Shown here: piece after piece, positions 12,494 to 46,209 of the stretch
Layout: each line of letters starts with the position of its first letter
Position numbering within the stretch: position 1 is the first letter of the stretch
From: Takakia lepidozioides
Lineage: Eukaryota; Plantae; Bryophyta
Assembly (NCBI GenBank): GCA_030704615.1
Contig: CM060734.1
Span: 992,001-1,056,000, forward strand
Reading direction: 5' to 3'
Length of the DNA stretch: 64,000 nucleotides
Program-made: the position numbers and the translations under genes
Notes under the pieces: model-generated
Seen by the model: only the letters and a program-made list of their open reading frames with translations
Database searches by the model: none
Told to the model about the DNA's origin: nothing

Positions 12494-12494
12494 A

Positions 12495-12849
12495 TGATAA
12501 GAAAACTAGAAAACACACTGCTCACACCAGAAACAACATGAACCCATTGCTATCACTCTTTAAAACAGAAGTCAAGCTAGGGGCACCCCAAGCTATGGGG
12601 ACTCCACCCCACAACAACCTACACTCCCATCATAAGCACACTCAAATCTAAACGCATGAAGGAGCTCGGTCGCGCAGGCTCAACTCGAGAGAGATGAGCT
12701 GCGCGACTGCCGCTCTCGTGAAGATAAGACGGACCAGGTGTCAAACTAAACTTGACACCTGATTTAACACTTGACCTAAATCCAAGTGTTAAATACAAAT
12801 AACTAGTTTTATTCTAGTTGTTTTCACACTGTGCTTATTTAACTTGACA
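12495..12849 (-). repeat. Repeat B2 (355 bp, TG...CA) of element 2
   Basis: About 7 differences by eye from B1 at 30828-31182. Confidence 0.93.
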
Positions 12850-12871
12850 GCTGTCGTGCGCATACATATCG

Positions 12872-13598: not shown

Positions 13599-13600
13599 CT

Positions 13601-13612
13601 TGGTATCAGAGC
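13601..13612 (+). promoter_or_regulatory. Primer-binding site complementary to initiator tRNA-Met
   Basis: TGGTATCAGAGC 2 nt after the LTR, the canonical plant iMet PBS. Confidence 0.95.
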
Positions 13613-13653
13613 TTAGAGTTCAGTACGCGATCGTCCTTGGGATTGGCCTCGTC

Positions 13654-18385: not shown

Positions 18386-19290
18386 TGGGGACATCAACCT
18401 TGGAGCGTGGGGGAGGAAATGCATGCTTAGCCCGGTTTAGCTAGCTCAGGAATCCGATTGCAAAAACTTGTATTGTACAAAAATTTGTTATAAAGGAAAT
18501 GGGTTCCAAATATTGTGCGTCCTATTGTGTTTGGAATGGTGATGCATGGTGTGGTTGGCTAGTGTGTAGAATACATGCTAGCTTACAAAAGTGGGAGAGG
18601 TAAATTGGGTTAATCGTGTGTTTGCGCAGTGCCGAAATCGGGTGACTTCCATCCAAGGGCAAGGAAACTTGCGCCTTCTTTGGGAGTTCACGTGCTAGTG
18701 CGCACCTGGCGCGTGCGCGTACTATAACTGCGCTACCGAGGGGGTTGCCTTGTAGTGCGGGCTAACGCGGAAGCTACGTGCTTCCGTTCACGTACTATAA
18801 TCGTGTAACCTCGGGATGAAGTCGTAGTGCGGCTTTGGCGTGTTCCCGTACCTCAGGCTAGCATTCCAAGGCGGACCCAATTGTAGTGATTGGGGCGCAT
18901 GGTTGGTTCAAGGTTATCTTCCTAGTCAAAGAGGGTTCCAGGTGAACCCTTGCTCAAGGTGATGCCAAAAGCGGCATCATGAGCGATCGCAAGCAATGTT
19001 GTTGCAGTAAGGCGATTCGATCCTCGGGGAGGATCGTTCCTTGACCTTGAAGTAGGCCAAGAAGAGTGCACTGGGAGGAGCTGGAGAGGCTCCACCCTTA
19101 GCCGGGACTTGGAGGAAGTCGGCCGAACTAGCTAGTGGAGAGTAGAGTCAAGTGTGGGGTTTGGTTCTTTGCCATGGGACGCCATGGTACAGAAACAAAC
19201 TCCTTGATGTGGGACGCCACAACTTGGATGTTCGTTTCTACAAAATGGACAAGTCGATGAGGACATCGACTCCCTGTTGGTAGGGGTGTG

Positions 19291-20016
19291 TGTCGCGGCC
19301 CTTTGCCTTGAGGGCAGGGGGTCGGGACACATGAGGGGCTGCCCCTGTGGTGGGGGCAGCGGCAGCGATAGGTATGGGGGGCTGAGGCACCCTTGAGTGC
19401 CCAAGGCACTCAGGGAAGCGGAGGCGCTCACTAGGTGGAGCCCCGCACACCGGGTTGCGGTGGGGGTGGCTCCACAAGGGGTGGTGGTAGCTTCGTGGGA
19501 CTTAGTGGGGGTGGCATAGGACTCACCATGGGGGCGGAGACCTCGTGGTGGGAGTCGTGGGGAGTCTTGGGATCATCACGGTCCATAGGGGCCGTGGTGA
19601 GCGGGCCAAGACTCACCGCGACTCACCACCGGGAATCGAGGGTCTTCGTGGTGGTTCGCCATAAAATGGCATGGCTGGTTGTGAAACCCCCGCGGACAGC
19701 TACAGAAGTATATATAGGGAGTAGTATCCCCGAGAATGGTGCAAGCCCGTTGGTGACCAAAAGCTAGTGAGTAAGCGAGCAAGCCGGAAAGCGACCAAAG
19801 AGTGGGGAGCTGTTCCGGACTGCCATCTACCAAAGGGAATTCTCCTAGTCCCAATTAGGTGGAGGGTTTTAGAGGGAAGCGAAAGGGGACCGTTATGTCC
19901 CGGTGAGCAGCCGAAGCTCCAAGTTGGCCCGGGCGGCCAGGTTGGGAGTCAGGCGCGCGCATCAAAGCGAGTAACTATGACTTGAAGGGGAGTTTACCGA
20001 AGTGGGGTGCGCGACA
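19291..20016 (+). repeat. 3' LTR of the chromovirus
   Basis: About 3 differences from the 5' LTR; preceded by tggtaggggtgtg. Confidence 0.95.
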
Positions 20017-20086
20017 TATTGCTACACAACTACATCGCTGTCCAAACCACACCACACATATATGCACAATAAAGTAGTCTACCACA

Positions 20087-20101
20087 ATCGCCCCCCTAGC
20101 T
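20087..20101 (-). promoter_or_regulatory. Polypurine tract of DNMT-Gypsy element 2
   Basis: agctaggggggcgat immediately before the TGTGG of repeat A1; same in element 1. Confidence 0.8.
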
Positions 20102-20346: not shown

Positions 20347-20490
20347 CTATCCAATGCAATGTGGACATAACCAATCCCCATCCGGAACCATCTCAAGAGG
20401 TGGAGTGAAACATCCCATATGCCAACCTCTAGAGCACCGATCACACACCAGCATGGTGGCTGCCCCTTTAGCAGACCCACACAACATGCA
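20347..20490 (-). pseudogene. PHD zinc finger (C4HC3) at the integrase C-terminus
   Basis: CMLC...MLVCDRCSRGWHMGCFTPPLEMVPDGDWLCPHC. Confidence 0.93.
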
Positions 20491-21850
20491 CCTCAAACCT
20501 GCAGATACCACTGCCAGGTTTGGGTCAATCCTGCCATCGACATTCGGAAGGTGACATGGCGCACAATTACGCACATGGTCCTTCCAAGTTATGCCATCCC
20601 GACCCTCCAAGACCAAGACGCCTGAGGGCAAGACCTCTCGAACCCTCAAAATAACACGTCCTGCAGTCACATCCAGGGTCGTAGGAGCAGTCTGCTGCAG
20701 ATAGACATAGTCACCAGGGTTGAATCTCCGAACCCCAGGACATTAGCCCCCACCACGTATGGTAGCATACCTCAACGTATCACGGGGTTGTGCAATGGCA
20801 AGGTTCTTGAAAGCCATAGGCATGACTCTCTTGAACAACTCTGCACGCTGCTCACATGCACGTGCACACACATCCGGATCGTCAAGGTTAAGAACTGTAG
20901 CAGCTTCTCTGCGAATGGATGTAGGCAAATCCGGCTCTCGGCCAAAGAGAAGAAAGTATGGTGAGAAGGAGGCAAGTGATGCTTGCTTGCTGAACCTGTA
21001 GCCCATGACTAACCAGGGTAACTGAAGGTCCTAATCTCCTAGGTGTCCCTTCTGCAAGCCATACTTGCGCAAACCCCTCTTTACTGTCTGAACAACTCTC
21101 TCTGCCAAGCCATCGGCCTCAGGAGAAGTGGTGTAGTGGTCTATCAAGGCCTTGTCACACAACGCCTGAAACTCCCCCAAGAACTCTCTCCCTTGGTCCG
21201 TGAGTACCTCAGCTGGAGCACCGAATCGGCTAAGCACACAATCCAAGAATGCATACGCAGCTCCCTCACTAGCCTTATCAGGCAATGGAACCAATTCAAT
21301 CCACTTGGAGAAGTGCTCCACCATCACCAACACATACTTGTTGTGGCGCATGGTCAGTGGCAACGGCCCTGCGAAGTCAAGACTCCACCTGTAGCCCAAT
21401 CCCATGATCGGAAGAGGGTGCAATTGTGGAGTAGGGGCGTTGAATGAAGCACGCACCTTGTCACACGCCATGCACCTAGCCACAAATTGTTGCACCTCTG
21501 TGTGCATACCACGCCACCAATACTGCCCCTGTAGTAGACTATGAGTGCGTCGCACCCCAAAATGCCCCAACTCCTCATGGGCATGCGCACTAACCGTGCC
21601 CGCTGTGTTGGGTGAGGCACAATCCTCACTCGACCATCCTCCCACACTCGGAGCAGGTGTGTCCCCTCCCACTTGAACCTCTTGGCTCGTTGTAGGATCC
21701 GATCCCTCTCCTTGGCAGTCACAGTGGCTGCCGTGTCTCCAGTGCGGAGGTAGTCCAACACAACTGAATCCTCATGTAATCTACAGTCATCCCTGTTGCA
21801 GGTCCAACCTGGCCTTCCGCTGCCAAGATACACAGAAATGCAGATGCATG
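20491..21850 (-). pseudogene. Gypsy DDE integrase (HHCC plus catalytic core), frameshifted
   Basis: HEELGHFG...CMAC; WSLDFAGP; VLTDQGREF; DGLAERVVQTVK; SPYFLLFGREP. Confidence 0.92.
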
Positions 21851-23304
21851 CCATCCGGGCACCATCTCCTCGTCCGTCTCACCATGCCACCGAGCTCCAG
21901 TGTCATCCTGTTGGCTCGTGCATGGATTGCGACTCAACCCATCTGCATTGCGATTGACCAAACCCGGTCGATGCACCACCTGAAAGTCATACTCTTGAAG
22001 GATGAGTGCCCACCGTGCAAGCTTCCCCGTAAGCTTGTCTGACTCCATCAACCACTTGAGTGGTTGGTGATCCGTGACAAGGGTGAAGAGATTGCCGTAT
22101 AGATAGCACCTGAAGTGTGCCACGGCCCACACTGCAGCTAAGCATTCTCCCTCATATGAGCTATACTTAGACTCTGCAGTGTTGTTTGAGCGGCTAGCAT
22201 AAGCCACTACGAACTCTCTTCCCTCATCATCCACCTGTGTGAGCACCGCTCCAAGCCCCAACATGCTCCAATCTGTATGCAGCTGAAAAGGACGCCCCCT
22301 GATAGGTCGTCTCAAGATGGGCGCCGAGGTCAACCTCGCCTTGAGCTCTTGAAAAGCTTGTTCTTGCTCATCTTCCCACTGCCACTCCTGGTCCACCTTG
22401 GTCAGCTTGGTTAGAGCCTTTGCAATGGCACTAAATCCCTTAACAAACCGTCTGTAATAGTTTGCTAACCCCATGAAAGCTCGAACTCGGCTCACATCCG
22501 TGGGGCGTGGAACCTGTGCAATGGACTCTACCTTAGTCTGCTGTACCCCCAATCCTCCAGGATATATCATGTGACCCAGATACTCAATCTGGTTGTGGAA
22601 AAACTTGCACTTTCCCGGATGTAACTTCAATCCGTGCGCCCTCAAGCGCTCAAATACCCCCTGAAGGTGTCTCTCATGCTCCTCCACCGTAGCACTAAAG
22701 ATGATGATGTCATCTATGTAGCACCGAGCAAACTCCACCCTGCTAGAATCCTGTCCATGACTCTTTGAAACTCAGCGGGAGCGTTTTTAAGCCCAAATGG
22801 TAAGAACCGCCACTGGTATAGGCAATCCTTCCCGTGCTCATTGATCCCCCAGAATGCCGTCTTTTGCTTATCCGCCTCCTTGATCGGCAACTGGTGATAT
22901 CCGGATCGTAAATCCAACGTGCTAAAGACCTTGGAATGCCCAATGGCATCAAAGATCTCCTCTGGTGTCGGCATGGCATACCTATCGGACTTGGTCTGAC
23001 GATTTACAGGCCGGTAATCACCGCACATACGTCTCTCCGTCCAATTGCCATAGACATCCTTCTTGGCTGGCATCACTGTGGCTGAAGCATACTCTCCACC
23101 AGAGAGCTCCACCAAACCTGCCTCCCAAAGATCCTGAGTTCTCATCTGAATCAAGGACCTCTCCATGTCACTGTATCTATAGGGTCTCCAAAAGATTGGC
23201 GTGTCAGTAGCCAATTCAATGCGAATCTCTTGACCCTTCAGTGCTCCCAAGTCCTTCAAACTGAAGGCAAAGCAATTCCTGTAAGCCCTCAGGAACCGCC
23301 GCAT
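21851..23304 (-). pseudogene. Reverse transcriptase and RNase H
   Basis: [40 protein letters not shown]; LHTDWSMLGLGAVL, YEGECLAAVWA, TDHQPL; one frameshift near 22740. Confidence 0.95.
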
Positions 23305-23418
23305 ACGTCGTCTCTCTCCTCCGGTGACAATGGGTCCAATGTCAGGCTCCCAATTGTCCTCCGTAACTGCAACCTTAAGTCCAGTGGGCTTAGAGGTAGA
23401 GGACGCGTCCCGTGGTTG

Positions 23419-24783
23419 CTATGCTGCAACCTCTTGAGCAGTACTCCCTTCTTGCTCAGTCAATGACAAGGCCTCATCCTGCCCCATCATCTCATCATTG
23501 AGAACCTCCTCAACCCGAGAAGAATCCCCAACCTCATCCATCATAGCTGCCTTGGCTGCCAACTCCCTCTGGACCTCGAGCACCTCCCACGTGTGCCATG
23601 GATGTCTACACCCCGTGGTCCTCACCGGCTCGCCCCCACTCGCTGCCTGTACCGTCTCGGTGGGCAGAGAGACCGTCAAGGGAAGTGCACTCCGCACTCT
23701 ACGTTGCTCAGCCATAGCCAAGCTGATAATCCAGGTCAAGCAATTGAGATCCATTGCTTGCCCCAACACCTGACGACGTGATGCCTCAGAAAGAGAAGGC
23801 ACCGCCGTGGTCCCAGTGGAAAACCCCATAGCCCGCTCGCGCTCGTCGGCATTAGGCTCCACTAACTGTTGCAACTGAGCATCCCACAGGAGGCCAGGTC
23901 CACCATCCCGAAAAGCATGGGATCCTGGGAAGCTGAGCAGTGTAGGTAATGCTGCTCGTGGTTGACCCACCCTGTTGACCACTGCCAAAGGCGAACGGTC
24001 ATCGTGTCTCACACGTTGAGACTGCCTTCCTGTGTCCAAAATGCCATCCACGGTGAGGTGTGTTGGCCGCTGCACCCCATCAAATGCACGCTTGAGCAGT
24101 GCGGGTGGCATCAAGTTAGTCCACCAAAGCCGTGGACGATGAGCCCGTGATCCCACTGCAGCTGCATCCAGCAGCACTGCTGACCCAAGCCACGACCGGA
24201 CTTGATGCACACTGGCCATCACCCTGGCCCGAGAATCACCCATCAGTGGCACATTCTCCAAGATGTATGCTGGAGATACAGCTTGATGAAGCTGCAAGTG
24301 GCGCAAAACCCGCACCATCTCCCAAAACAGACCCGTCCTCGAGTCTCGCAATCCATTGCCATGCCCGGCTGATGAATGCCCCTGGCAGGGCCAACCTGCC
24401 ACTACGAGATCAATGGAGCCAACCTGCTCCAAATCTTGCGCCCCCAACAAGGAAATGTTTGCTCGCAAGGCTTGTTGGTATCCACGAACTGTAGACACAG
24501 GCAACAAGTCAGGGTACTGCTGAACCAACTGAGCAACATGGCGCAGTGAGACGCGTCGTGCAGTCTCATCCCTCTCCACATACAGGTACCGCCTTACCCG
24601 CACACCTGCCTGTAGCACAGCAGCCAATCCGGTGCTGATCCCGCCAAACGAGTCCAGAAGGCAAATGCCTTCATCCATATATTGCCACACAATAGGTGTG
24701 GTATCCAATGGTGACAACTGAGGTGGTCCTGGTGCAATACCCGCACTCTCCTCCTCTCCTGACGGTACGAAAGCTTCTACCAA
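23419..24783 (-). CDS. DNMT3-like C5 cytosine DNA methyltransferase domain within the polyprotein (core ~23730-24670)
   Basis: Motifs in unpermuted order: I LLDSFGGISTG, II YVERD, IV AGWPCQ, V RTGLFWE, VI ILENVP, VIII AHRPRLWWTN, IX ERERAMGF, X RRQVLGQAMD. Confidence 0.93.
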   Translation of the reverse strand: MVEAFVPSGEEESAGIAPGPPQLSPLDTTPIVWQYMDEGICLLDSFGGISTGLAAVLQAGVRVRRYLYVERDETARRVSLRHVAQLVQQYPDLLPVSTVRGYQQALRANISLLGAQDLEQVGSIDLVVAGWPCQGHSSAGHGNGLRDSRTGLFWEMVRVLRHLQLHQAVSPAYILENVPLMGDSRARVMASVHQVRSWLGSAVLLDAAAVGSRAHRPRLWWTNLMPPALLKRAFDGVQRPTHLTVDGILDTGRQSQRVRHDDRSPLAVVNRVGQPRAALPTLLSFPGSHAFRDGGPGLLWDAQLQQLVEPNADERERAMGFSTGTTAVPSLSEASRRQVLGQAMDLNCLTWIISLAMAEQRRVRSALPLTVSLPTETVQAASGGEPVRTTGCRHPWHTWEVLEVQRELAAKAAMMDEVGDSSRVEEVLNDEMMGQDEALSLTEQEGSTAQEVAA

Positions 24784-25486
24784 GCTTGTTGCACCCGTCC
24801 ATCAGCAACCTGCTGCAAATCCTTGCTCGTACCCCACAATGGAGTGTGAGCAACCATGGCAGGCAACTCCGCCATACCATGCATGTCATCCTGCTCTGCT
24901 GGAGGTGGCACATCTCTGCATGGGCATTGCCTTCCAGCAACTCTCCAGGCCAACAAACTGCAGCTGTAAAGGCGGCTAGTGTTGGCATCTTGCCCCGCTG
25001 GGCAGCCGCTATACCCCCAATGAATGTCACAGGAAGCTGTGCACGGCGACCATCGCCTGACTGCCATCCAGGCCTGTAGGATGCTGACTCCTCCCAAAAG
25101 TCCAGGGTGAAGCCCATGGGGTATAACACTGCCCCACCCATTTGGACATCGTAAGAGACCGCGTCTGTCACAATGGCCTTGGTTCGCATTACTGAGCCAT
25201 CGATAGGATGATCCGGCTGCAGTCTAATGGCCAACTGATGCCGTGTCATGCCCCGAGCCTGCTCTGATCCTCCCAAAGATGTCTGTATCTGGAAAGGACA
25301 AGGCTCCATATCCGCCTCCATGAGGCCCAAACCTGCAATAGCAGCTCTGCCCAACATCAGTGGCTGAGCTCCCGAGTCCAACAAGACCCGTTGTGGCCGG
25401 TACTTCTTGCCTGCCGGTCCACTCAAAGTGAAAATGCCTCCCTGGTTGTCTAACAAGACAACTCCAGGTGTCACCATGGCGCTCAA
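24784..25486 (-). pseudogene. Retroviral-type aspartic protease region
   Basis: VLLDSGAQPL catalytic motif and downstream YDVQMGG (YDVLVGG in element 1). Confidence 0.8.
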
Positions 25487-25561
25487 AGGCTGGCCTAGCT
25501 AGCAGCTCCGTCAACCTGGCAGCTGCAGCTTGCCAGGGCGCAGCCGTGGCAGTCTTGACCC

Positions 25562-27259
25562 TCAAATCCAGGATCCCTCTGCCACTACACCTTCCACTAA
25601 CTCCGCAGAAGATGAAGTGACCTCCCCACTCTCACAGAGTGTTGCTGCTAGTCTGAACACTGCAGCTGGCCTTACCCCCGGCGTCGCAATCATGGTTGCC
25701 GAGAACAATGGGGCTTGACACACAGAGGTGGCTGCCCCCAATAACACACCGGCTGCACTAGCCTTGGTAGCAGGTGTTAGTGCTGCACGTGTAGCTCTCC
25801 CCAATGGCATAGTAACCTCCGCCTCGGTAACAGTCGGGCGAGAACTAGGTGCCATGGATGGCGTCGACACAGTCTCCGCCAATGTGAATGACTGAGGAAG
25901 CCTCGCCTGACGGCTTGCCTCCCCACGCTGTGGATCCAATTCCACCTCTGCACCTCGTGGCTCAGGAACTCGTGCTGCTCCTCGAGTCACGGCTGCAGCA
26001 GACTCCACCTGCTCTAGTGGTAGTGCTGCTCCGCACATGAATCCCATACCTCCCATATCTCCTCCCTCGGGAGCAGGAGGTGGACCATCCGGCCTTAGAG
26101 CCGGTACCGCCTGAGCTATAGCCATTGCAGCGAGCCTCTGCTCTAGCTGCTGAAGCCGGTTGGCCATGCCTTGGTCAACACCCTGACCTTCGCGTCCGTG
26201 GCCATGTTGAGCTTGCCCTTGGCCTGCACCTCGTGCCCGACCACCTCGTCCTCTCTGGGCTGGTCCACCTCGCCCCCGGCCACCATTGTTCCCTTGGAAC
26301 TGGCCTGGGCGCAACTCAGGATGCAAGTCATAACACTGGGCATCTCCATGCCCATACTTGCCACAATGCCCACACTGCAACTGTGCAGGCTGTGTTTGTG
26401 CCGGCCTAGTCCCTTGTGCCTGTGGGCTGACAGCTGTGCCCCGTGCAGGCATGTCCTTGCCAAATCCAATTGTAACAACTCGCTCCTCCACCATGTTGAG
26501 CTCAATCCGCTCAGCCAGCAGCAACACATCTGCTAATGTGGGTTGGGCTGCTTGTAACAGGGTTGCATCTCGCACCCTTCTCTTGAGCTCCTTGTCCAGA
26601 ATTCCATACCAAAACTGGATTTCCTGAGCTTCAGTAACCCCTTGGGTCACACTTATCAAGCGCCTCATATGAGTGTACGCCTCTCGTAGGCTCTCACTGG
26701 GTTTGCGCTGGAAGTCTTGCAAACTTCGCAGCTTCTCTGTCCGTACACCTTGGTAGTTCCTCCGCAACTCCTGGAAGAACTCCACCACCGGGTTGAATCT
26801 AGGCACATGTGTTGTAGTCGTGGCAGGAGGAGTAGTAGCACCTTTTGAACTGGTACCACCTGCAGAAGTACCAGCACTACTTGCTCCACTACTAGTGCTG
26901 GCAGTGGGAGCTATTGGTACTGATGCAGCTACTGGTCGCGTCGTGCCTCGAGTAATGGAGACGTAGTCAGGTGACCAATACATCCTCCACTCCTCAATCT
27001 CTGCTTCATGTCCTCGCCTGAACTCGTGGTAATCGTCCATAGGCGGGCCTTCCAAATGCTGGAACAGTCCCTTCCACGCCATGAATGGGGTGAATAGCTG
27101 TGGATTGCGCATCTGCTGCAAATCACACCAGCTGTCGAACTCCTGGATAAAGTCATCCAACTCGATTGTGCCCATAGCTCCAGAGTACCTACGAGGCCCC
27201 TTGGTAGCTCCATACATCTCCTCCATGTCGTCCCACAACAATGGCGAATGAAAGTGCAC
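25562..27259 (-). CDS. gag: gag of element 2 (one CCHC retained, one deleted in frame)
   Basis: FQRKPSESLREAY capsid-like motif, CGHCGKYGHGDAQC, RGG-rich tail; start codon uncertain. Confidence 0.8.
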   Translation of the reverse strand: MHFHSPLLWDDMEEMYGATKGPRRYSGAMGTIELDDFIQEFDSWCDLQQMRNPQLFTPFMAWKGLFQHLEGPPMDDYHEFRRGHEAEIEEWRMYWSPDYVSITRGTTRPVAASVPIAPTASTSSGASSAGTSAGGTSSKGATTPPATTTTHVPRFNPVVEFFQELRRNYQGVRTEKLRSLQDFQRKPSESLREAYTHMRRLISVTQGVTEAQEIQFWYGILDKELKRRVRDATLLQAAQPTLADVLLLAERIELNMVEERVVTIGFGKDMPARGTAVSPQAQGTRPAQTQPAQLQCGHCGKYGHGDAQCYDLHPELRPGQFQGNNGGRGRGGPAQRGRGGRARGAGQGQAQHGHGREGQGVDQGMANRLQQLEQRLAAMAIAQAVPALRPDGPPPAPEGGDMGGMGFMCGAALPLEQVESAAAVTRGAARVPEPRGAEVELDPQRGEASRQARLPQSFTLAETVSTPSMAPSSRPTVTEAEVTMPLGRATRAALTPATKASAAGVLLGAATSVCQAPLFSATMIATPGVRPAAVFRLAATLCESGEVTSSSAELVEGVVAEGSWI

Positions 27260-28134
27260 ACCTGTTGATGAAGCCTCCGAGTCTGTGTCTGACTCTACAG
27301 TAATTGAGGGTGGCGGTGAAGGTGGTCTGAACCGAATACCTCATCTTGTGAACCCACTCTCACTGTTATTGCCTATAGCCGTACTCCCCTCAAAACCCTT
27401 GGGTAACTCCGTAATGACACTCACAATGTGCACCTCCTCCACGTGACACTATAAGGCTCTAGTACTAATCTAATAGTGACACGGGTGGGCACCTGTTGCA
27501 GTTTAAGGGTCATATCCCAATGGCTCAGGGCACCTGCACCTGCATCCACCGCAAGAACTCCTATGGTTGGGTGGTCATCAACCCAGCCTCACCATAGAAG
27601 AAACACTGGTGGTCTTGTTGGTCATCACTCCAGCCTCACCACCGACATCATACTCTAGGATTGACCGGTGATCAAATCCGGCCTAATCCCTATGAAAGCA
27701 AGCGCCCACACAAAACCAACATGGCGCACAGTCAAGCATGCAGGTGTTGGGGGGGATCCAAACACAAGAAATCAAAACATCAACACCCCCACACCAAAAT
27801 CCAGCTGCAATGCTGATCCTGCAGAATAGCCCAGCCCAAAACCCCGGACTGACTGGCCTCCACCAAGAGAGGCTTTGGCAACTACAAGTACAAGGTAATG
27901 AAAATAGTACAGAGATGGAGGGGAAGAATAGAAGCCCGACCAAGCAAGATCTAATCCTGATCTATGCTATCAACTGCCAGACTTCTCTCAAAGCGCCTCG
28001 CTCTGCATGATGGTAAGGTGTAGGAGGCATATCTATGTCCAGAAACCTGCCACTAACCTTGTCCCAAGCTACAGTAGCTCGCTCTAACCAACCCTCCTCC
28101 TCTTTCTGCCAGGTAGAGACAAAGCAATGCTCCC

Positions 28135-30366: not shown

Positions 30367-30663
<297 letters not shown>

Positions 30664-30811: not shown

Positions 30812-30827
30812 GCTCATCTCTCTCGAA
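30812..30827 (-). promoter_or_regulatory. Self-complementary primer-binding site of element 2
   Basis: (T)TCGAGAGAGATGAGC directly after B1, complementary to GCTCATCTCTCTCGA inside B (31018-31032). Confidence 0.8.
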
Positions 30828-31182
30828 TGATAAGAAAACTAGAAAACACACTGCTCACACCAGAAACAACATGAACCCATCGCTATCACTCTTTAAAACA
30901 GAAGTCGAGTCAGGGGCACCCCAAGCTATGGGGACTCCACCCCACAACAACCTACACTCCCATCATAAGCACACTCAAATCTAAACGCATGAAGGAGCTC
31001 GGTCGTGCAGGCTCAACTCGAGAGAGATGAGCTGCGCGACTACCGCTCTCGTGAAGATAAGACGGACCAGGTGTCAAACTAAACTTGACACCTGATTTAA
31101 CACTTGACCTAAATCCAAGTGTTAAATACAAATAACTAGTTTTATTCTAGTTGTTTTCACATTGTGCTTATTTAACTTGACA
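30828..31182 (-). repeat. Repeat B1 (5' terminus of element 2)
   Basis: Matches 12495-12849; flanked by TSD AGGT. Confidence 0.93.
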
Positions 31183-31205
31183 AGGTTAAGCGAAGAAAGG
31201 TAGGA

Positions 31206-32481
31206 CAGGATTTCGAATGGTGCAACGCACAGACATCCCGGCCCACGCATTTCCGGTTCCTCAGACCCAGCCATTGCAGACTGCTCGGTCCAGTAGAGAC
31301 GGATTGGACAATTCTGCACATCCCACAATGCGATTCGGAAGAGTGAAGAGACGACACCCTCCCAACAAGTTGAATGAGACTCGGATTGCCAATGCTCTTG
31401 GGATGGCTTGCACTATTCAGAGCTCCGTGGACGTACCCCCACCCGGCCTTGGGCGTGTGTATCGGATGGCAACGGCCGGCTCGGCTGTACGCGACGATGT
31501 ATACACAATTACGATTGGAGTGGAGCCGACTTGCAATTGTACGGACTTCTCGTTGATGGAAGCAAAGAAGGGTTCGAAGTATTATCCGTGCAAGCATCTG
31601 TATTACATTTACCTAAAGAGGTTGAGGATGAACGTGACTATTGATGACTTTATTCATGCACCGGCGTTGAGCGTGAACGAGCTGCACAAACTCCTCCTTA
31701 GGGATTCCAGAAATCATTGATGGGGCAAAGGGAATCCTCCATATGGATATTTTCAATTGCATTTTGCTGTATCAGACTTTTTTTTGCAGTGTAATGAAAT
31801 GCACCCCAAAACTCCTGGAATGATGCAATATTCCATTCAAACTGAGATCCAACAGAAGCAGTTGTGGGGCCATTTCTGGAAAAATGGCGCCGAATTTCTC
31901 TTTTTGGGGCCGAAAACTGGCTAAGTCCCAACATGCACTAGTACCTGTGTCTGGGAAAATGGCGCGCCATGTCACCTTCCAAATGTTGACATGCACTGGT
32001 ACCGTATCTGGAAAAATGGCGCCAAATTTCTCTTTTTTGGGCCGAAAACTGGCTAAGTCCCAACATGCACTGGTACAGTGTCTGGAAAAATGGCGCCGAA
32101 TTTCCCTATTTTGCGCCGAAAACTGGCTAAGTCCGAACATGCACTGGAAAAATGGCGCCGAATTACCTGTCATGAGGGGACCTATAGCCGCGGAATTCGG
32201 CACCATTTTTCGCCAGAGAGACCTATTACCGCGAAATACGTCGTCGTTTTTTTCAGGTTACGGACCCTATTACCGCGAAATTCGGCGCCATATTTGCACA
32301 TGTCGCTGGGAATTGGCATGAGCGGAAGACGAAATATCATGAGCACAACTGTCAAAACTGCAATTTTCCCTTCAAGGGGCCGAATAATATATTTGTTTTT
32401 CCTGACACATTGCATTAAATTATTGTTTTTTATTGTTTTTTATTTTCGAAAATTGTACTTCTGCTCATGAAAACCGATTGT
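31206..32481 (+). mobile_element. Terminal fragment of the MULE/SWIM-type DNA transposon (inverted copy of ~59223-60365)
   Basis: Same SWIM C-terminus (CNC...CKH) and ~73-bp subterminal repeats (gaaaaatggcgccgaattt). Confidence 0.85.
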
Positions 32482-32486
32482 CTAGT

Positions 32487-33790
32487 ATGAGTGCCAACCG
32501 TGCAAGCTTCCCTGTAAGCTTGTCTGACTCCATCAACCTCTTGAGTGGCTGGTGATCCGTGACAAGGGTGAAGAGATTGCCATATAGATAGCACCTGAAG
32601 TGTGCCACGGCCCACACTGCAGCTAAGCACTCTCCCTCATATGAGCTATACTTAGCCTTTGCAGCGTTGTTCGAGCGACTGACTTAAGCCACTACGAACT
32701 ATCTTCCCTCATCATCCACCTGTGTGAGCACCGCTCCAAGCCCCAGCATGCTCCAATCTGTATGCAGCTGAAAAAGACGCCCCTTGATAGGTCGTCTCAA
32801 AATGGGCGCCGAGGTCAACCTCGCCTTGAGCTCTTGGAAAGCTCGTTCTTGCTCATCTTCCCACTGCCACTCCTAGTCCACCTTGGTCAGCTTGGTTAGA
32901 GCCTTTGCAATGGCACTAAATCCCTTGACAAACCGTCTATAATAGTTTGCCAACCCCATGAAAGCTCGAACTCGGCTCACACACGTGGGGCGTGGAATTT
33001 GTGCAATGGCCTCTACCTTAGTCTGCTGTACCCCCAATCCTCCAGGATATATCATATGACCCAGATACTCAATTTGGTTGTAGAAAAACTTGCACTTCCC
33101 CGGATGTAACTTCAATTCGTGCGCCCTCAAGTGCTCAAATACCACCTGAAGGTGTCTCTCATGCTCCTCCACCGTAGCACTAAAGATGATGATGTCATCT
33201 ATGTAGCACCGAGCAAACTCCACCCCTGCTAGAATTCTGTCCATGACTCTCTGAAACTCTGCAGGAGCGTTCTTAAGCCCAAATGGTAACCCGCCACTGA
33301 TATAGGCAATCCTTCCCGTGCTCATTGATCCCCCAGAATGCCGTCTTCTGCTTATTCGCCTCCTTGATCGGCAACTGGTGATATCCGGATCGTAAATCCA
33401 AAGTGCTAAAGACCTTGGCATGCCCAATGGCATCAAAGATCTCCTCTGGTGTTGGCATGGCATACCTATCGGACTTGGACTGACGATTTACAGGCTGGTA
33501 ATCAACGCACATACGTCTCTCCGTCCAATTGTCATAGACATCCTTCTTGGCTAGCATCACTGTGGCTGAAGCATACTCTCCACCAGATAGCTCCACCAAA
33601 CCAGCCTCCCAGAGGTCCTGAGTCCTCATCTGAATCAAGGACCTCTCCATGTCACTGTATCTATAGGGTCTCCGAAAGATTGGCGTGTCAGTGGCCAATT
33701 CAATGCGAATTTCTTAACCCTTCAGTGCTCCCAAGTCCTTCAAACTGAAGGCAAAGCAGTTACTGTAAGCCCTCAAGAACCGCCGTATAC
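32487..33790 (-). pseudogene. RT and partial RNase H of element 1
   Basis: [30 protein letters not shown]; stops and frameshift. Confidence 0.92.
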
Positions 33791-33902
33791 GTCGTCTCTC
33801 TCCTCCGGTGACTATGGATCCAATATCAGGCTCCCAGTTGTCCTCCGTGACTGCAACCTTGAGTCCAGCAGGCTTAGAGGTAGAAGACGCGTTCCGTGGT
33901 TG

Positions 33903-35915
33903 CTATGCTGCAACCTCTTGAGCAGTGACCACTACCTGCTCTGTCAGTGACAATGTCTCATCCTGCCCCATCATCCCATCCTTAAGGACCTCCTCAACCC
34001 GAGAAAAATCCCCAACCTCATCCATCACCGCCGCCTTGGCTGCCAACTCCTTCTGAACCTCGAGCACCTCCCACGTGTGCCATGGATGCAGCCTGCACCT
34101 CGTGGTCCTCACCTGTTCGCCCCCACTCGCTGCTTGTACCGTCTCGGTAGGCAGAGAGACTATCAAGGGAAGTGTACTCCATACTCTGCGCTGCTCAGCC
34201 ATAGCCAAGCTGATAATCCAGGTCAAGCAATTGAGATCCATGGTTTGCCCCAACACCTGACAACGTGATGCCTCAGAAAGAGATGGCACCACCGTGGTAC
34301 CAGTGGTAAAACCCATTGCCTGCTCGCGCTCGTCAGCATTGGGCTCCACTAACTATTGCAACTGACTATCCCACAAGAGGCCAGGTCCACCATCCCGGAA
34401 AGCATGAGATCCTGGAAAGCTGAGCAGTGTAGGCAATGCTGCTCGTGGGTGACCCACCTTATTGACCACTACCAAAGGTGATCGGTCATCGTGTCTCACA
34501 CGTTGAGACTGCCTCCCTATGTCCAAAATGCTATCCACCGTCAGGTTTGGTGGCCGCTGCACCCCATCAAATGCACGCTTGAGCAATGCAGGTGGCATCA
34601 AGTTGGTCCACCATAGTCGTGGGCGATGAGCCCGTGACCCCACTGCAGCTGCATCCAGCAACACTGCTGACCCAAGCCAAGACCGCACTTGATGTACACT
34701 GGCCATCACCTTGGCCCGAGAATCACCCATCAATGGCACATTCTCCAAGATATATGCCGGAGAGTCTGTCTGCTGAAGCTGTAAATAGCGCAGGACCCTC
34801 AACATCTCCCAAAACAGGCGTGACCTTGAGTCTTGTAACCCATTGTCATACCCAGCTGATGAAAGCCCTTGGCAGGGCCAACCTGCCATTACTAAGTGAA
34901 TAGGGCCAACCCGCTCCAAATCATGCGCCCCTAGCAAGGAGATGTCTGCTGGCAAGGCTTGTTGGTATCCACGAACTGCAGACACTGGCAACAAATCAGG
35001 GTACTGCTGCACCAACTGAGCAATATGACGCAGTGAGATGCGTCGTGCAGTCTCATCCCTCTCCATATATAGGTAACGTCGAACTCGTACACCTGCCTGC
35101 AGCACTGCAGCCAATTCAGTGCTAATCCCGCCAAACAAGTCCAGAAGGCATATGCCTTCATCCGGGCACTGCCACACAAGAGATGTGGTGTCCAATGGCA
35201 ACAACTGAGGTGGTCTTGGTGCAATCACCGCATTCTCCTCCTCTCCTAACGGTACAAAGGCCTCTACCCAGGCTTGTTGCACCCGTCTATCAGTAGCCTG
35301 CTGCAAATCTTTGCTCGTACCCCACAATGGAGTGTGAGCAACCATGGCAGGCAACTCCATCGTATCATGCATGTCATCCTGCTCTGCTGGAGGTAGCATA
35401 TCCTCTGCATGGGCATTGCACTCCAGCAACTCTCCAGGCCAACTAAGTGCTGTTGTGAAGGCTGCTAGTGTTGGCATCTTGCCCCGTTGGGCAGCAGCAA
35501 TACCCCCAATGAACGTCACAGGGAGCTGTACATGACAACCATCCCCTGACTGCCATCCAGGCCTGTAGGATGCTGACTCCTCCCAAAAATCCAGGGTGAA
35601 GCCTATAGGATACAACACTGCCCCACCAACGAGGACATCATAAGAGACCGCGTCTATCACAATGGCATTGGCTCGCATCACTGAGCCATCTATAGGATGA
35701 TCTGGCTGTAGTCTAATGGCCAACTCACGCCGTGTCATGCCCCGAGCCTTCTCTGATCCTCCCAGAGATGTCTGTATCTGGAAGGGACAATGCTCCATAT
35801 CCGCCTCCATGACGCCCAAACCTGCAATAACGGCTTTGCCCAACATCAGTGGCTGAGCTCCCAAGTCCAACAAGACCCGCAATGGCCAGTACCTCTTGCC
35901 TGCCGGTCCACTCAA
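33903..35915 (-). pseudogene. Protease plus DNMT3-like methyltransferase of element 1 (in frame with each other; one stop at ~34353)
   Basis: LLDLFGGIST, AGWPCQ, ILENVP, AHRPRLWWTN, EREQAMGF, QVLGQTMD. Confidence 0.92.
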
Positions 35916-36001
35916 AGAAAAAATGCCATCCTGGTTGTCTTACAAGACAACTCCAGGTGTCACCATGGCGCGCTCAAAGGCTGGCCTAGTTGGCAGCTCC
36001 G

Positions 36002-38060
36002 TCAACCTGGCAGCGCAGCTTGCCATGGCGCAGCCGTGGCAGTCTTGACCCTCAAATCCGAGGATCCCTCTGCCACTACACCTTCCACTAACTCCGCAGA
36101 AGATGAAGTGACCTCCCCACTCTCACAAAGTGTTGCTGCTAGTCTGAATACTTCAGCTGGTCTTACCCCCGGCGTCACAATCATGGTTGCCGAGAATAGT
36201 GGGGCCTGACACACAGAGGTGGCCGCCCCCAACAACACACTGGCTGCACTAGCCTTGGCAGCAGGTGTCGGTGCTGCATGTGTAGCTCTTCCCAATGGCA
36301 CAATAACCTCCGCCTCGGTATCCGTGGGGCAAGAATTAGATGCCATGGATGTCGTCGACACTGTCTACGCCAAGATGAATGATTGAGGCAACCTAGCCTG
36401 ACGGCTTGCCTCCCCACGTTGTGAATCCAACTCCACCTCTGCACCTCGTGGCTCAGGAACTCGTGCTGCTCCTCGAGTGACGGCTGCAGCAGACTCCACC
36501 TGCATTAGTGGTAGTGCTGCCCCACACATAAATCCCATGCCTCCTATGTCTCCTCCGTCAGGATGACGCTGCTGAGGAGAAACAGGAGGTGGACCCTTAG
36601 GTCTTGGAGCTGGTACCACCTGAGCTGTGGCCATGGCAACAAGCCTTTGCTCTAGCTGCTGAAGCCGGTTGGCCATACCTTGGTCAACGCCCTGACCTCC
36701 ACGTCCTTGGCCATACTGTGCTTGCCCTCGTCCTGCACCTCGTGCCTGAGCACCTCGTCCTCTCTGAGGTGCTCCACCTCGCCCTCGGCCACCATTGTTC
36801 CCTTGGAACTGGCCTCGCCGCAACTCAGGGTGCAAGTCATAACACTGGGCATCTCCATGCTCATATTTGCCACAATGCCCACACTGCAACTGTGCAGGCT
36901 GTGCTTGTGCCGGCCCTTTGCCACTTTCTGGGCAATCTTTCTTGACATGGGGTCCTCCACATGTCCAACATACCACCCCTGGTTGTTGTTGGCCTGCAAA
37001 AGAAGCTATTAGCCTCTGCACCTGAGGTCCCCTGTAAGCTCCATGGAATTTGGGTTGGGCAACCTTGCCCCCCTGACCACGCTATTGGGCAGTCCCTTGT
37101 ACCTGTTGGCTGGTAGCTGCACCTCGTGCAGGCATGTCCTTGCCAAATCCAATGGTAACAACTCGCTCCTCCACCATGTTGAGCTCAATCCGCTCAGCCA
37201 GCAGAAACACATCTGCTAATGTGGGTTGGGCCGCTTGTAACAGGGTTGCATCCCGCACCCTTCTCCTGAGCTCCTTGTCCAAAATTCCATACCAAAACTG
37301 GACTGCCTGAGCTTCAGTAACCCCTTGGGTCACACTTATCAAGCGCCTCATACGAGTGTAGGCCTCTCGCAAGCTCTCACTGGATTTGTGCTGGAAGTCT
37401 TGCAAACTTCGCAGCTTCTCTGTCCGTACGCCTTGGTAGTTCGTCCGCAACTCGTGAAAGAACTCCACCACCGGGTTGAATCTAGGCACATATGTTGTAG
37501 TCGTGGCAGGAGGAGTAGTAGCACCTTTTGAACTGGTACCACCTGCAGAAGTACCGGCACTATTTGTTCCACTACTAGTGCTGGCAGTGGGAGATATTGG
37601 TGCTGATGCAGCTACTGGTCGCGTCGTGCCTCGAGTAATGGAGACGTAGTCAGGTGACCAATACATCCTCCACTCCTCAATCTCTGCTTCATGTCCTCGC
37701 CTGAACTCGTGGTAATCGCCCATAGGCGGGCCTTCCAAATGCTGGAACAGTCCCTTCCACGCCATGAATGGGGTGAACAGCTGTGGATTGCGCATCTGCT
37801 GCAAATCACACCAGCTGTCAAACTCTTGGATAAAGTCATCCAGCTCGATTGTGCCCATAGCTCTAGAGTACCTACGAGGCCCCTTGGTAGCTCCATACAT
37901 CTCCTCCATGTCGTCCCACAACAATGGCGAATGAAACTGCACACCTGTTGATGAAGCCTCCGAGTCTGTGTCTGACTCTACACTAGTTGAGGGTGGAGGT
38001 GAAGGTGGTCTGAAATGAACACCTCGTCTGGTGAACCCACTCTCACTACTGGTGAACCCA
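36002..38060 (-). pseudogene. gag: gag of element 1 with two CCHC knuckles
   Basis: CWTCGGPHVKKDC and CGHCGKYEHGDAQC; in-frame stops. Confidence 0.85.
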
Positions 38061-38517
38061 CTCTCACAATCTGTAGGTCCTCGCGCAAATTTGAGGTCAA
38101 ACAGCCTTTGTATGACCAAGTTATGGCAAAAACAGGCTCTGTATAATTTAAATTGGATCAAAACAAAGCTCCAAATGTATTTCAATAAATACAAGTATTT
38201 TTGACGTACCCTACATGTTTCATGCGAATACCCGTAATTCCGAGGACGGATCTCTACATGTGCAGGAGCTTTAAAACTGGGAGTCGGGGATTTGCTACTG
38301 GTCGGTGCAGGAAAGAAAACTTCGCAGTCAGGTGCCAAGCGCCATGAATACCATTCCAAACAACGATGGCCTAATGCCCAAGATCCTGTCTTAACTGCGT
38401 AATTTGTTCAATCAGTGGAGCTCCTTCAAGCAACTGCTCCAGTCGTTTGTACTGATCATATCTTCTTAGCTAGCCCCCCACCCTGCCCCCTCCCTCTCAC
38501 ATTGTGTCAGACGAACA

Positions 38518-38770
38518 CCTTAACACGGAAGAGGCCATCGAGCAGAATGTTTGAGGTCTTGACATCACAGTGGACATAGTGGGCCTTGGTGTAATCGTGG
38601 ATGTACTCCAGCCCCGCTACATCCAAGGCTATCTGCACTCTGCCTGACCATGGTAATGGCCGATGCCCATTTGCAGCAGCGTTATGAAGACGATCGCTGA
38701 GAGCTCCCTTCTCAACAAACTCGTAAGCCAGGAACAGACTGGTCTCACCTGCCGAATATCCGATCAACTC
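38518..38770 (-). pseudogene. Captured LysM receptor-like kinase (CERK1/LYK-type) kinase fragment
   Basis: [19 protein letters not shown]...[35 protein letters not shown]. Confidence 0.82.
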
Positions 38771-38801
38771 CACCTTCGGTGGAACAACCCAACTCACAAA
38801 G

Positions 38802-39030
38802 AATTCAGACCAGTTCCCAACGTATCTGGAGCGACCCTAGAAATTGTATTCTCGCACGGTACATTTGGGAGCAGTTGTTAACCCAATTGGCTGGCTTCCT
38901 TGGTTGGGTACCTTTGCATTCAAGACCCTTTTCTATGCAGAGTATCAAAGCAGGCGGTCTTATGGGGTCTCATACAGGTCCACGCAAATCACCAGTCCAA
39001 AGGTGGCCGACCACTTTTCAGGCTGCAAAC
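38802..39030 (+). pseudogene. Captured pectin methylesterase C-terminal fragment (antisense to the element)
   Basis: [15 protein letters not shown]...VVNPIGWLPWLGTFAFKTLFYAEYQ resembles TYLGRPWK.YSRTV...GW..W...L.TL.Y.EY. Confidence 0.8.
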
Positions 39031-39948
39031 ACCTGGCTACCAGGTACATGAATCAATGGGTTTTATACTTCCCTCTGATTTCTTCAATAGCTGATGTCGC
39101 AGCTTCCTTTGTCTGGAATGTTGCTTAGACAATCGTCTTCTGCATCCCTCATGTTGATGCAAAAGATCCGCAAGCTGGAGAAGTTTTTTAAGACAAATAA
39201 AATAAAATAAAACCCAATGTGACCAGCAGCAGCCGACAGAGGCTGATAGGTGGCAGACCTCCTACTAGCTCTCCAGCAGCCCGCAGTAGCTTGAACCTTC
39301 CACCCTGAGCCTAGCAGGCATAAAGAAGGGCGGGAATCTTCCAGCTTCCCCGAATGATACACTCGATGCAGTGAAAATCAGAATAATACAAAGCTTTGCC
39401 CTGTTTCCACAAGAAAATCGCAGTGATAGAGACGTCCCAATGAAATGATATTGCTCAAGAGACGACGCATTACATCACCAATAAGTACAATCGACATCTG
39501 CACGCATTGGCTGGTGACGTGCAATCCAGCTCGATGCCCAGGTAGCAGTTCCGCACACCGTCACCGCTTGCTCTACATTCTCGCGGCCTCACTAGCCCCA
39601 ATACATGCTTCTACTTGTGCTCGACTTGGTGATTTCAGATGCCACTAGTACTTGGACCGGCCCCCATGGTGAAGATTGAACCTGCTCGACCTTCAGTGTC
39701 CGGCAATGCACCGGTTAACCTATATTACGGGAAGCAATACCTTCTTTCAACAATATAGGCTTCTCAGTTCAGCCCCTTCCAACAACCTTGTACAAAGCAA
39801 AGCATTCTGTTCTCAACAGATATATATATGGATTACATAATTCTCCACTTCACCTGCCCTCAAACAAGCTTTGAAACAAAAACAAGTATACTAGTGCTAA
39901 CTAAAAACTCACATCTAGCACTGACGATGCAAGCTCATCTCTCTCGAG

Positions 39949-40303
39949 TGAAATGAAAACTAAACTCACACTGTCACTTGACACAAAAACACGAAATACA
40001 ATACAATCACGCGTTAAAATAAGAGTCGAGCCAGTGGCACCCCAAGCTATGGGGACTCCACCCCACAACATCCTACTCTCCCTCCATAAGTACACTCAGA
40101 TGCTAAGCAGCGAGGGAGCTTGGTCGTGCAGGCTCAACTCGAGAGAGATGAGCCGCACGACTGACGAGCTCGTGAAGATAAGATGGTTCAGGTGTCAAGC
40201 TAAACTTGACACCTGACTTAACACTTGAATTAATTCCAAGTGTTAAATATAAATAACTAGATTTATTCTAGTTAGTTTCACACTGTGTTTATTTAACTTG
40301 ACA
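39949..40303 (-). repeat. Repeat B1 of element 1
   Basis: About 11 differences from 11420-11774; same subfamily, distinct from element 2 B. Confidence 0.92.
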
Positions 40304-43300: not shown

Positions 43301-46200
43301 TCCGAACCCCTCTAGTAGGAGTTCCATGAACAAAACCTCTAATTTGACTCCCTAGGATGGCTACTGGTGGCAGGATCGTCCCCTTCCTCCTCTGAGGAAG
43401 TGTACTCAGTAGGTCCACTCGGGGCACTCTCTACTGAAGAGGTGGCATGTACCACCCGGGGCGGTAAATGAGGCAATTGCGCCAAAGGGACTCTCAGACC
43501 AAAAGGAAAAACTACTAGCCGAACTAGGACCGGTGGTAGTGTCCTACAAGCTACAACATGTGATGCAACAAAAGAACTCTCTGCTGGCCGATCTCTAACT
43601 GTGCCTAGCAGGGTTAATGAACTAGATGAAATCAACTCACGAATAAGGGCTGATGACGTGTTCCCCGGTGATAGTACCGAGGAGGCAAGAATGGTTGGCA
43701 GGCCCTCCTTGGGTGGGGGAGGTGCTCACTCTCGACTCCGTCCTCTCCTGGGCCGACTCCAATCAACCAGTCCACGAAAGCGGGGCGATGTCCGCAAATA
43801 GTGCGCCCCACACACTCCCTCAACGGAGTGGAACGCCTAGCGACCCTACTGCGCGTGTAGAGCAGGGTGTCGGTGATGGTGCGACACAACACACAACAAG
43901 CCATGTAGGCCACCTGCCACGCAAGATGGACCTCAAGGGCCGAATCAAAATGAATATACGCAAGAAAGGGTGGCTGACAACAGCCTGGCCAACGAGTGTT
44001 GAACCGAAAAAATGTAGCAATAGGGGCCGTCCGGGCTCCGGGGCCTCGGGGTTCAACTCGAGCAGAGATCCAATACTCTTGATACTCCTCTGCAATGGTC
44101 AGGATGCGTCGTAGCATCAGCCTGCAAATCACTGTGGCCTCGGGGCGAGGTACGTCTCCAGTCCTGGTGCTGGAAATGATGCGGTAGAGTCCGATCACCT
44201 GGTACTCAAAGGAATGCTCCCGACGAGGGAGTGCCAATGGTGCAGCCATACTGCCACTCAAAATTCTCCACGTGGTTAGCCCTGTGCTTAACTCAAATGC
44301 AAGAAATCTATCTAGATGTACCTATTGGTTCACTCAGTCTTTTCCTGTCCGAGTCAAAACATAAAACGTCAATAAAAAATGAAAAGAACAAAAATCCCAA
44401 AGGAGAATGACAAAGGTCCAATTCTCCTTCTATTCGGAATACAAAGAGTCCTGACTATTCACTTACCTCCCGGCAGATGTACCATTCATATGACGAGCCC
44501 TGAGCGCGCGCGGTCAGGGTGACGGCATAGTAGTCTAGGAGGGTCGTGGTAAGTTGCGGTGTAGGTTAGGCTCATTGAACCGCCTACCCGACTACGGTTA
44601 GTGCATGGGGTCCGTGGTCGTATATGGTGGCTATGATCACTATTTAAGTTCTACCGGCAAAGAGAAATCACGTACTCCTCTTCACAGGGCAAGTTTGCGT
44701 TTCTAAGTCCTACAATCTACTCAGTAACTACCTTCCAAGTCTTTGTGTTTTATTGTCTAATTCCTACCGCCTAGGCCCCCGAGCCGCCTATAGCCGGGAC
44801 ATGTTTTAATCCCTTCACAAGGCACTTGCCGAGCCTAGAGGGAAAATCTTCCTCTCCCAATGCCCCTCTTTCGCCGAGGGTTTGAGTTCAAGTCACTTCT
44901 AATGGAAGGTCCAACGCTTCCTACCCCAGTGCCTAAATACTTTGTTTTAGCAAAGGAGTGGCCAAAATGCCTATCGTCATCCAATAGGTTCACCAAGTTC
45001 AATAAGGTGGTTCTAAGCCCCTCAACTCAACAAGTTCAATTAGTTTAATCAATGCCCTACAGGCTATAACGAGCACCACGTGCATCTATCCTATTTAAGT
45101 AATTTCGCAAATCAGAAATGTTGGAAAATAAAAGAAATTAAGAAAAATCAGAAAAATTACCTCCCCTATGGGAAATCATGTGGGGAATCCAAAGATACCC
45201 TTGGCGCCTAAAGATGCCCTTGGGAACCCAATGAGAACCGAGGAACACCCGGGAACCGTTCCCTGCCGCGGGGAACTGTCGCGGCTCTATCGGATGAATG
45301 AATCTCGCTGAGAGCTCATCCCTGCATACTACATTCGTTAGTCCAAAACATGCATGCGTAAATAATAAAATAACCACTGGTGGATCCAAGCCAGATTTCA
45401 CCCCCTTACATTATTTTAAGGCGCTGGTGCGCTTTCCCTCCGTGGAAAAAGTCATCCTCTACCTTGGGCTCTGACACAAAGGCTCACTGTAGCCGAGTTT
45501 TTAGGACATAGTACTTTCTCTCCTTCCTTGTCTCTCGAGGTCTCCGCCTCTAGCTCACTGCTCCCATGCCCGCTTGGCTCTCTCTTGGAGTCCTAAGAAC
45601 GCTCCCCTCCAAGGCTACGTCCTCCCAAAATCCTAGATTTTATCTACCACTGGCGCCTTAGATAATGGCTCCTAACCCTTAGAGAGGTATAAATTGAATC
45701 TAATAACTAAAGGTAAGAATACCCCCCTTTAAGGGAATTTGCAGACGCATTGCCCGCTGGGTAAAACACCCCGCCACGTGGCGGGGCTCAGATCCGCGCG
45801 TAGTGGTCCAAACCGTGGACCGCTGCGGTTAACGCCAGCGTCCGCCGGTCCGTCTCAACTTCTGGTTATCCAGCGGTAAAGACCCGCACCCTGCTCGCAC
45901 GCTTCAGGGCCTCACGCCTGAGCCACGCGGCTGATGTTCTTGATCTCAGTACGACTTAAGGTCAGCGCTGGGGCCCCACTCCCGTACGTCGTGGCTGGGC
46001 CACGGCTGCCTCCACGCTTTTAGTAATCGAGTCCCTACTCTCTAGGCGCAGCACCCGCGCTCCTCCCGGGCTGCTCGCGACTTTGGGGCAGCTGCTGTCA
46101 AGCGAAATTAGCCCGCCCAAACCCCAAGACAAAAAATACAACCCATATTTTCAAGGTTAACCACTCGAGCCCAGGCTCGAGCTCTCCTATTGGTGGAGGC
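40304..46200 (-). mobile_element. Older degenerate Gypsy-like element (gag with several zinc knuckles, long leader); right boundary uncertain
   Basis: LPWFSGEAHENPEYHV, FPTTMRGRASTWY, IRQGPTEEVADF, CFLSGL, CKKCGRTTHPTEDC, CLHCGQRGHPLERC in 40944-42379. Confidence 0.6.
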
Positions 46201-46209
46201 ACGTCCTCT

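Follow-up and report, generated by a model that had tools for sequence, protein, structure and literature searches.

The closest described system for priming from an element's own RNA is Tf1, in which the transcript's first 11 bases pair with the primer binding site (PBS) and RNase H cuts after base 11, freeing the primer (PMC7175516). In plants, self-priming has been predicted for Tcn1 and TAR Copia elements in a study whose main text, as available, does not contain the term 'PHD' (PMC6317226). Repeats that are split rather than carried as two equal LTRs have been described in other elements. KnitGypsy-Dnmt3 of Klebsormidium nitens (de Mendoza 2018) has Gypsy domains, a Dnmt3-related domain in pol and, according to a figure legend, DIRS-type repeats, and the available text and supplement mention neither its priming nor its circles (PMC5890265). 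The same source describes an A-coding-B-A-B layout for SymbioDIRS (PMC5890265). Among Chlamydomonas elements, Gypsy-7a was reported to have a PHD finger, 'LTR subparts' and a left LTR without its last 8 bp (Craig 2023), and Gypsy-7a_cRei to be active in laboratory strains; the available part of that paper gives no mechanism for the split LTRs (PMC9940879). As to the fate of joined ends, 2-LTR circles of LTR elements are described as mostly regarded as dead ends (PMC5314604), and HIV-1 integrase is reported to be able to cut a palindromic 2-LTR junction internally (PMC1905944).

Here we analyse a site that follows a terminal repeat in a 64-kb window, by which we mean the whole stretch of DNA studied. 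We consider it probable that this site is the PBS of a PHD/DNMT3-type Ty3/Gypsy element with split repeats, and that the element is self-primed and integrates by way of end-joined DNA.

Results

Structure of the two window elements

The window is a heavily rearranged nest of Ty3/Gypsy elements in which a 355-bp repeat, B, is present in four copies, two in each of elements 1 and 2. The left terminal repeat of element 2, B1 (30828-31182 (-), where (-) denotes the reverse strand; 355 bp, TGTCAAG...TATCA), comprises part of U3, R and U5, and is identical to B2 (12495-12849 (-)) at 348 of 355 positions. A contig of run X2 departs from the repeat at 31182, the outer edge of B1. The 4-bp target duplication ACCT adjoins the element on its left side at 31183-31186 (-) and on its right side at 12405-12408 (-). 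Between the repeats lies a decayed gag-pol (20350-27340 (-)), with frames broken by frameshifts and stops, in which Pfam recognised gag-like, protease-like, DNMT3-like, RT, RNase H, DDE integrase and PHD domains. The methyltransferase domain (PF00145; its reading frame is broken in the window) has DNMT3A as its top PDB match (E 2.7e-09). The PHD finger is located C-terminal to the integrase (E 7.3e-11), and Pfam detected no chromodomain. An rve integrase is present, and no tyrosine recombinase family was found in the eight of nine long ORFs of element 2 that were scanned.

A polypurine tract (PPT, 20088-20101 (-)) immediately precedes A1, the 5' part of which (20017-20087 (-)) is broken by a nested conventional Gypsy at 12872-20016. 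The palindrome GACA-GC-TGTC spans the A1/B2 junction (12846-12855, unstranded), and A2 (12409-12494 (-)), which terminates in CACGACA, forms the right end of the element. The layout is B1...A1-GC-B2-A2, with B1 alone at the 5' end and the PPT, A1 (86 bp), GC, B2 and A2 at the 3' end.

Element 1 has the same parts. Its B1 (39949-40303 (-)) contains the primer motif at 40153-40138 and is flanked on the left by the duplication CAAT (40307-40304). Its 3' end, now inverted (11318-11864 (+)), consists of the PPT, A1 (11332-11417), GC, B2 (11420-11774), A2 (11775-11860) and the duplication CAAT. B1 and B2 of element 1 agree at 344 of 355 positions. An inversion splits this element (32484-40303 (-) / 10897-11860 (+)), and the same 4-bp duplication is still found at both ends.

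The PBS is complementary to a site within repeat B

The PBS of element 2 (30812-30827 (-)) lies directly after the LTR-terminal CA. A sequence-only reading of this DNA had claimed that no TGG-type site follows B1, and neither the PBS of element 2 nor that of element 1 (39933-39948 (-)) opens with TGG. In element 2 a single T (30827) comes first, and the next 15 bases (30826-30812) can form an unbroken run of 15 Watson-Crick pairs with B positions 151-165 (31032-31018); the spacer T could add a G-U pair. In element 1 the complement is spacer-free and exact over 16 nt (39948-39933 with 40153-40138), the PBS offset from the LTR end being 1 in element 2 and 0 in element 1. The predicted self-primer of element 2, GCTCATCTCTCTCGAG (31017-31032 (-)), is the likely 5' end of its transcript. 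The complementarity of 15-16 bp announced by the earlier reading, with a polarity suited to priming and a partner about 150 nt inside B, is correct in coordinates and polarity, and the pairing begins at B position 151.

We compared these matches with LTRs resampled with their dinucleotide content kept (n = 20,000), and for both elements none of the 20,000 attained either 15 nt or 16 nt. At all other positions in the internal region of element 2, the self-match to the LTR is at most 10 nt. A 14-mer of the motif occurs six times in the window, each time exactly (four times in the B copies and twice at the PBS), against 0.35 occurrences expected when up to two mismatches are allowed. The nested chromodomain Gypsy, used as an internal control, has a TGG-type site and a self-match of just 6 nt. 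The earlier claims that the signal is kept in element 1 and that the sequence just downstream diverges also hold: over the 60 nt downstream of the PBS 34 of 72 aligned columns are identical between elements 1 and 2, as against 299 of 359 (83%) for B1.

The PBS and its partner change together across families

A scan of metagenome contigs yielded at least 80 loci of relatives, the best 80 of 90 confirmed, and gave three further families of the same branch with a 5' end. We refer to the window elements as F1 and to these families as F2 (L023, L031 = L033, L040, L008 and L003), F3 (L007) and F4 (L068 and L075). The PBS sequence is different in each of the four families, and each matches the repeat of its own family. 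In a PBS-by-LTR matrix the diagonal, within-family matches are 10-17 nt long (with one exception, a match of 6 nt) while those between families are 4-8 nt. The compensatory changes across copies that the earlier reading had suggested looking for are therefore present, in that the PBS changes together with its partner over four families. When F1 was aligned with F2, about 93-94.5% of cells were paired, compared with 26-48% in slid registers, and two-sided changes were seen in 6 of 11 pairs, a count from a single comparison of two families that was attained by 141 of 500 shuffles. L007 was excluded from the pair count as misaligned.

Three of the eight distinct related 5' ends (L007, L023 and L040) have an exact match of at least 10 nt to their own B1, with 0, 89 and 67 of 20,000 nulls, respectively; two (L031 and L068) match a sibling LTR only, and three (L003, L008 and L075) are decayed or without a PBS. 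L007 is a permuted contig and possibly a collapsed assembly. In each of the four families, the 3' arm of the pairing starts 0-1 nt past the LTR-terminal CA. We did not count an inverted repeat of 12 nt in L079, which may lie in coding sequence and where the terminal repeat lacks a defined end, and no relative of the element was found among viral contigs. In L014 (3361-3878) the sequence after B repeats the first 180 bp of B in inverted orientation, starting at a PBS-like sequence; this fold-back at a self-complementary site is either a template switch or a misassembly.

Promoter position and folding of the predicted RNA 5' end

Counted on the sequence, the distance from a TATA-like box to the first paired base downstream of it is 31 nt in F2, 26 nt in F3 and 32 nt in F4. 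At the position homologous to the TATA box of these relatives, element 2 has what is probably its counterpart, a non-canonical TTATCTT (31054-31060 (-)) 28 nt upstream of the primer. Plant transcription starts about 30 nt downstream of TATA. Given this usual distance and the spacing in the relatives, we infer that transcription of element 2 starts at 31033-31028.

When folded from the predicted start, the primer helix forms at a probability of ~1.0 in four of five 5' ends (elements 1 and 2, L007 and L023); it did not form in that of L040. In element 2, primer positions 2-14 pair with the PBS at a probability of 1.00. A second helix, whose 3' arm is at 30904-30911 (-), pairs with GTTGAGCC just behind the primer. 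Its probability is 0.98-0.99 in element 1 and 0.3 in element 2, and it is strong in L007; over five sequences 91% of its cells are paired, with zero two-sided changes. L024, L007 and the published Gypsy-3_cRei LTRs also have a 10-13 bp hairpin whose centre is at the predicted start or immediately ahead of it and whose upstream arm lies in U3. This arm might hide the primer motif's 3' copy, an idea that fits F2, F3 and Gypsy-3 and not clearly the window's family.

Split repeats, junction palindrome and target duplications

Seven insertions have both ends, and 4-bp duplications flanking B1 and A2 are perfect in six of them (elements 1 and 2, L031, L040, L075 and L008); in the seventh, L023, the duplication agrees at three of four bases. 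Five of the seven have the form B..ABA and two the form B..A, and none of eight intact left ends is B-A-B. The B2|A2 and PPT|A1 junctions share the start of A in both window elements, L031, L033 and L040. B2|A2 corresponds to the two predicted cDNA ends joined flush, and it is flush with the LTR-terminal CA.

Taken without its GC, the palindrome GACA-GC-TGTC consists of the two outer ends of the element, GACA and TGTC, and its only two copies in the window are both at A1/B2 junctions. Of 16 junction rows, 11 have an intact ACA-nn-TGT, and seven of these, with L028 and L078 of the algal branch among them, read ACA-GC-TGT; the 16 are the rows with a visible junction, three row pairs being the same insertion. 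Ten other loci, of 16 inspected, ended early or had no junction. The length of A ranges from 8 to ~180 bp with the palindrome retained. A short non-coding B-PPT-A derivative flanked by a 4-bp duplication is present at L068:18068-18594 (-).

Similar junctions are visible in the published Chlamydomonas consensus sequences, which we compared with the window element by eye. In the available part of that library, five of nine visible internal ends finish ACA-GC before a TGT LTR (PMC9940879). The internal part of Gypsy-7a ends in this way, with an A of 8 bp and a TGG-type site, and Gypsy-3_cRei has the same junction together with a non-TGG PBS that is self-complementary over 14 nt (PMC9940879). Gypsy-2 and Gypsy-7 have the split junction yet TGG-type sites (PMC9940879), and thus split repeats and self-priming are not tied to each other.

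Relationship to described elements

In common with Tf1/sushi and plant Tcn1, the window element has a PBS, apparently not of tRNA type, that adjoins the LTR directly and is complementary to a stretch inside it. It differs from them in having a PHD finger and no chromodomain, in a match of 15-17 nt and in carrying split repeats where they have two equal LTRs. In a quick RT/RNase H tree (81 rows, none of them a named Tf1 or Tcn1), it belongs to a branch of 48 rows with an SH-aLRT of 91, apart from the sampled chromodomain elements. Because of the PHD finger without a chromodomain, this separate branch and the split repeats, the window element is not a chromovirus of the Tf1/Tcn1 type. The description of the signal as Tf1-like, made in the sequence-only reading, consequently stands for the manner of priming, which covariation and the TATA-like boxes support, and not for the type of element, which lacks both the Tf1/Tcn1 chromodomain and a canonical LTR pair.

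KnitGypsy-Dnmt3 shares with the window element the Gypsy order with a DDE integrase, a Dnmt3-related pol domain and DIRS-like split repeats. Klebsormidium proteins match at 51-60% and one falls in the element's branch, none being labelled KnitGypsy-Dnmt3. In contrast, the closest named relatives of the window element, judged on the integrase core, are liverwort proteins (80-82%), followed by those of Sphagnum, Klebsormidium and chlorophytes, which makes a land plant without seeds the likely host. PAT, Ngaro and TOC elements have the A-coding-B-A-B layout in common with it. They use a tyrosine recombinase, whereas the window element has a DDE integrase, a PPT, CA-3' ends and 4-bp duplications.

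Discussion

Self-priming and its alternatives

We regard Tf1-like self-priming of the element as highly probable on the basis of its sequence and that of its relatives, with a predicted start at 31033-31028, a fold-back 5' end and a multi-way junction. The first 11-17 bases of the element RNA would bind the PBS, and RNase H, a domain that element 2 contains, would cut the primer free as in Tf1. For this the RNA 5' end would fold back across a loop of ~190 nt onto the PBS, and the second helix behind the primer would create the multi-way junction.

The PBS might instead bind a host tRNA, a tRNA half or another small RNA, the match to the LTR being a by-product of copying. Half-tRNA priming is known in plant Copia lineages (PMC6317226), and the TGG-type sites of the split-repeat relatives Gypsy-2 and Gypsy-7 favour such a reading. 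We nevertheless think it improbable, given that the PBS sequences of the four families are unrelated and every one of them finds its match in its own LTR, at a constant position downstream of a TATA-like box, and that the PBS has no TGG and the window no tRNA. Only marginally more credible is a pairing that is real but structural, closing a domain of the 5' leader that serves in packaging, dimerisation or the control of translation, with priming starting otherwise. The second helix, the local hairpins around the motif and a start position that is itself inferred are in keeping with such a role; the placement of the 3' arm 0-1 nt past the LTR-terminal CA in four families, where a primer must end, and the B2|A2 junction flush with that same CA speak against it. 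That the inverted repeat arose by chance or through misassembly can practically be dismissed. The motif is CT-rich and the window heavily rearranged, but no dinucleotide-preserving null reached the observed length, the match is found in two elements that are 83% alike in B as well as in independent assemblies, and the covariation across families already refutes this explanation.

A different objection accepts self-priming and concerns the repeats. Template switching along a read-through transcript with A2 in it could restore them and give linear DNA with B and A ends and no end joining. Template-switch rebuilding of split repeats has reportedly been modelled for Ngaro/PAT elements. The left ends, always B alone, would suit this route, as would the joined B|A, which is already present in every genomic copy and can be transcribed. 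Against it, the PPT directly before A1 means that plus-strand DNA begins with A and not B. Moreover, neither end of the element retains the two-base GC spacer, in agreement with a staggered cut, and the palindrome persists even though the length of A ranges between 8 and ~180 bp. We consider template switching a rather unlikely alternative to end joining.

A proposed end-joined route of integration

The balance of the sequence evidence tips modestly toward integration by way of end-joined cDNA that is re-opened by integrase at the palindrome. Synthesis of the plus strand would begin behind the PPT, at A, and that of the minus strand behind the PBS, where B ends. With these starts, standard reverse transcription would give a linear cDNA carrying a true LTR of A-GC-B. 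The cDNA ends would then be joined flush as B2|A2, through ligation to a 2-LTR circle or through an end-to-end jump of RT, and the DDE integrase would cut ACA-GC-TGT beside the join with a 2-nt stagger to produce CA-3' ends. The re-opened DNA would be inserted with a 4-bp duplication. We favour this route because B2|A2 has the form of joined cDNA ends and because the outer ends of the element are the palindrome cut in two; a cut after CA on both strands, staggered by two bases, would leave both ends without the GC, as seen. Unlike what a symmetric circle would give, left ends of the form B-A-B are absent, which requires that cutting be steered to the palindrome beside the join, or else that the repeats are rebuilt in another way such as template switches.

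Retroviral 2-LTR cleavage (PMC1905944) has in common with the end-joined route the cutting of an internal palindrome by a DDE integrase. In the retroviral case the palindrome is the end-to-end join itself and the reaction a side route, whereas in the window element the palindrome is a separate site inside the LTR and its cleavage would be the normal route.

For the wider branch, we give even chances to the following generalisation: in a green-lineage branch of Ty3/Gypsy elements, from chlorophytes to liverworts, the integrase site has moved to an internal ACA-GC-TGT, end-joined DNA is the normal route, and several families self-prime independently of Tf1/Tcn1. Self-priming is a known mechanism, found here in another lineage, and the end-joined route is the more surprising part. 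In the literature covered in full text, which takes in few subscription papers, Repbase reports and theses, neither self-priming nor palindrome-opened integration has been linked to this branch. The REM1 paper, which may reportedly discuss self-priming, would in that case lower the novelty of the priming in algal PHD elements. A published description places REM1 among the chromoviruses and gives its integrase region as truncated and reversed (PMC2774666); the name REM1 was not found in the part of the Chlamydomonas repeat supplement that was searched.

These elements add to the self-priming elements a non-chromodomain Gypsy branch with natural compensatory variants, one that seems to alternate between tRNA-type priming and self-priming. 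Their arrangement in the genome looks like what an end-joined cDNA, once opened by a DDE integrase, would leave behind, and the end-joined route is directly testable because Gypsy-7a_cRei, active in the laboratory, carries the same junction. Element finders built on the presence of two equal LTRs would overlook this branch or delimit its members wrongly.

Other features of the window

The conventional chromodomain Gypsy (12872-20016 (+)) that sits inside A1 of element 2 has LTRs of 728 bp that are 99.6% alike and a 5-bp duplication with one mismatch; inverted partial copies of it are found at 2351-7265. The leader of element 2 contains at 30385-30663 (-) a captured fragment of a host monodehydroascorbate reductase gene (PDB matches E ~1e-21). 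The stretch 30468-30656 of this leader shows three differences from a deep contig, and 30397-30461 matches a second contig. A scan against Rfam gave three weak matches in the window, all far under their gathering scores, and no tRNA gene was found within it. Two inverted copies of one unit, adjoining B1, are located at 31206-32481 and 59223-60365. This unit includes a SWIM-finger-like ORF (31190-31720; E 0.0013, below the Pfam cut-off) and may be a MuDR-type DNA transposon. At 46176-50808 and 54246-54830 there are tandem arrays, arranged in part as inverted blocks, whose repeat periods are ~120 bp and 52 bp.
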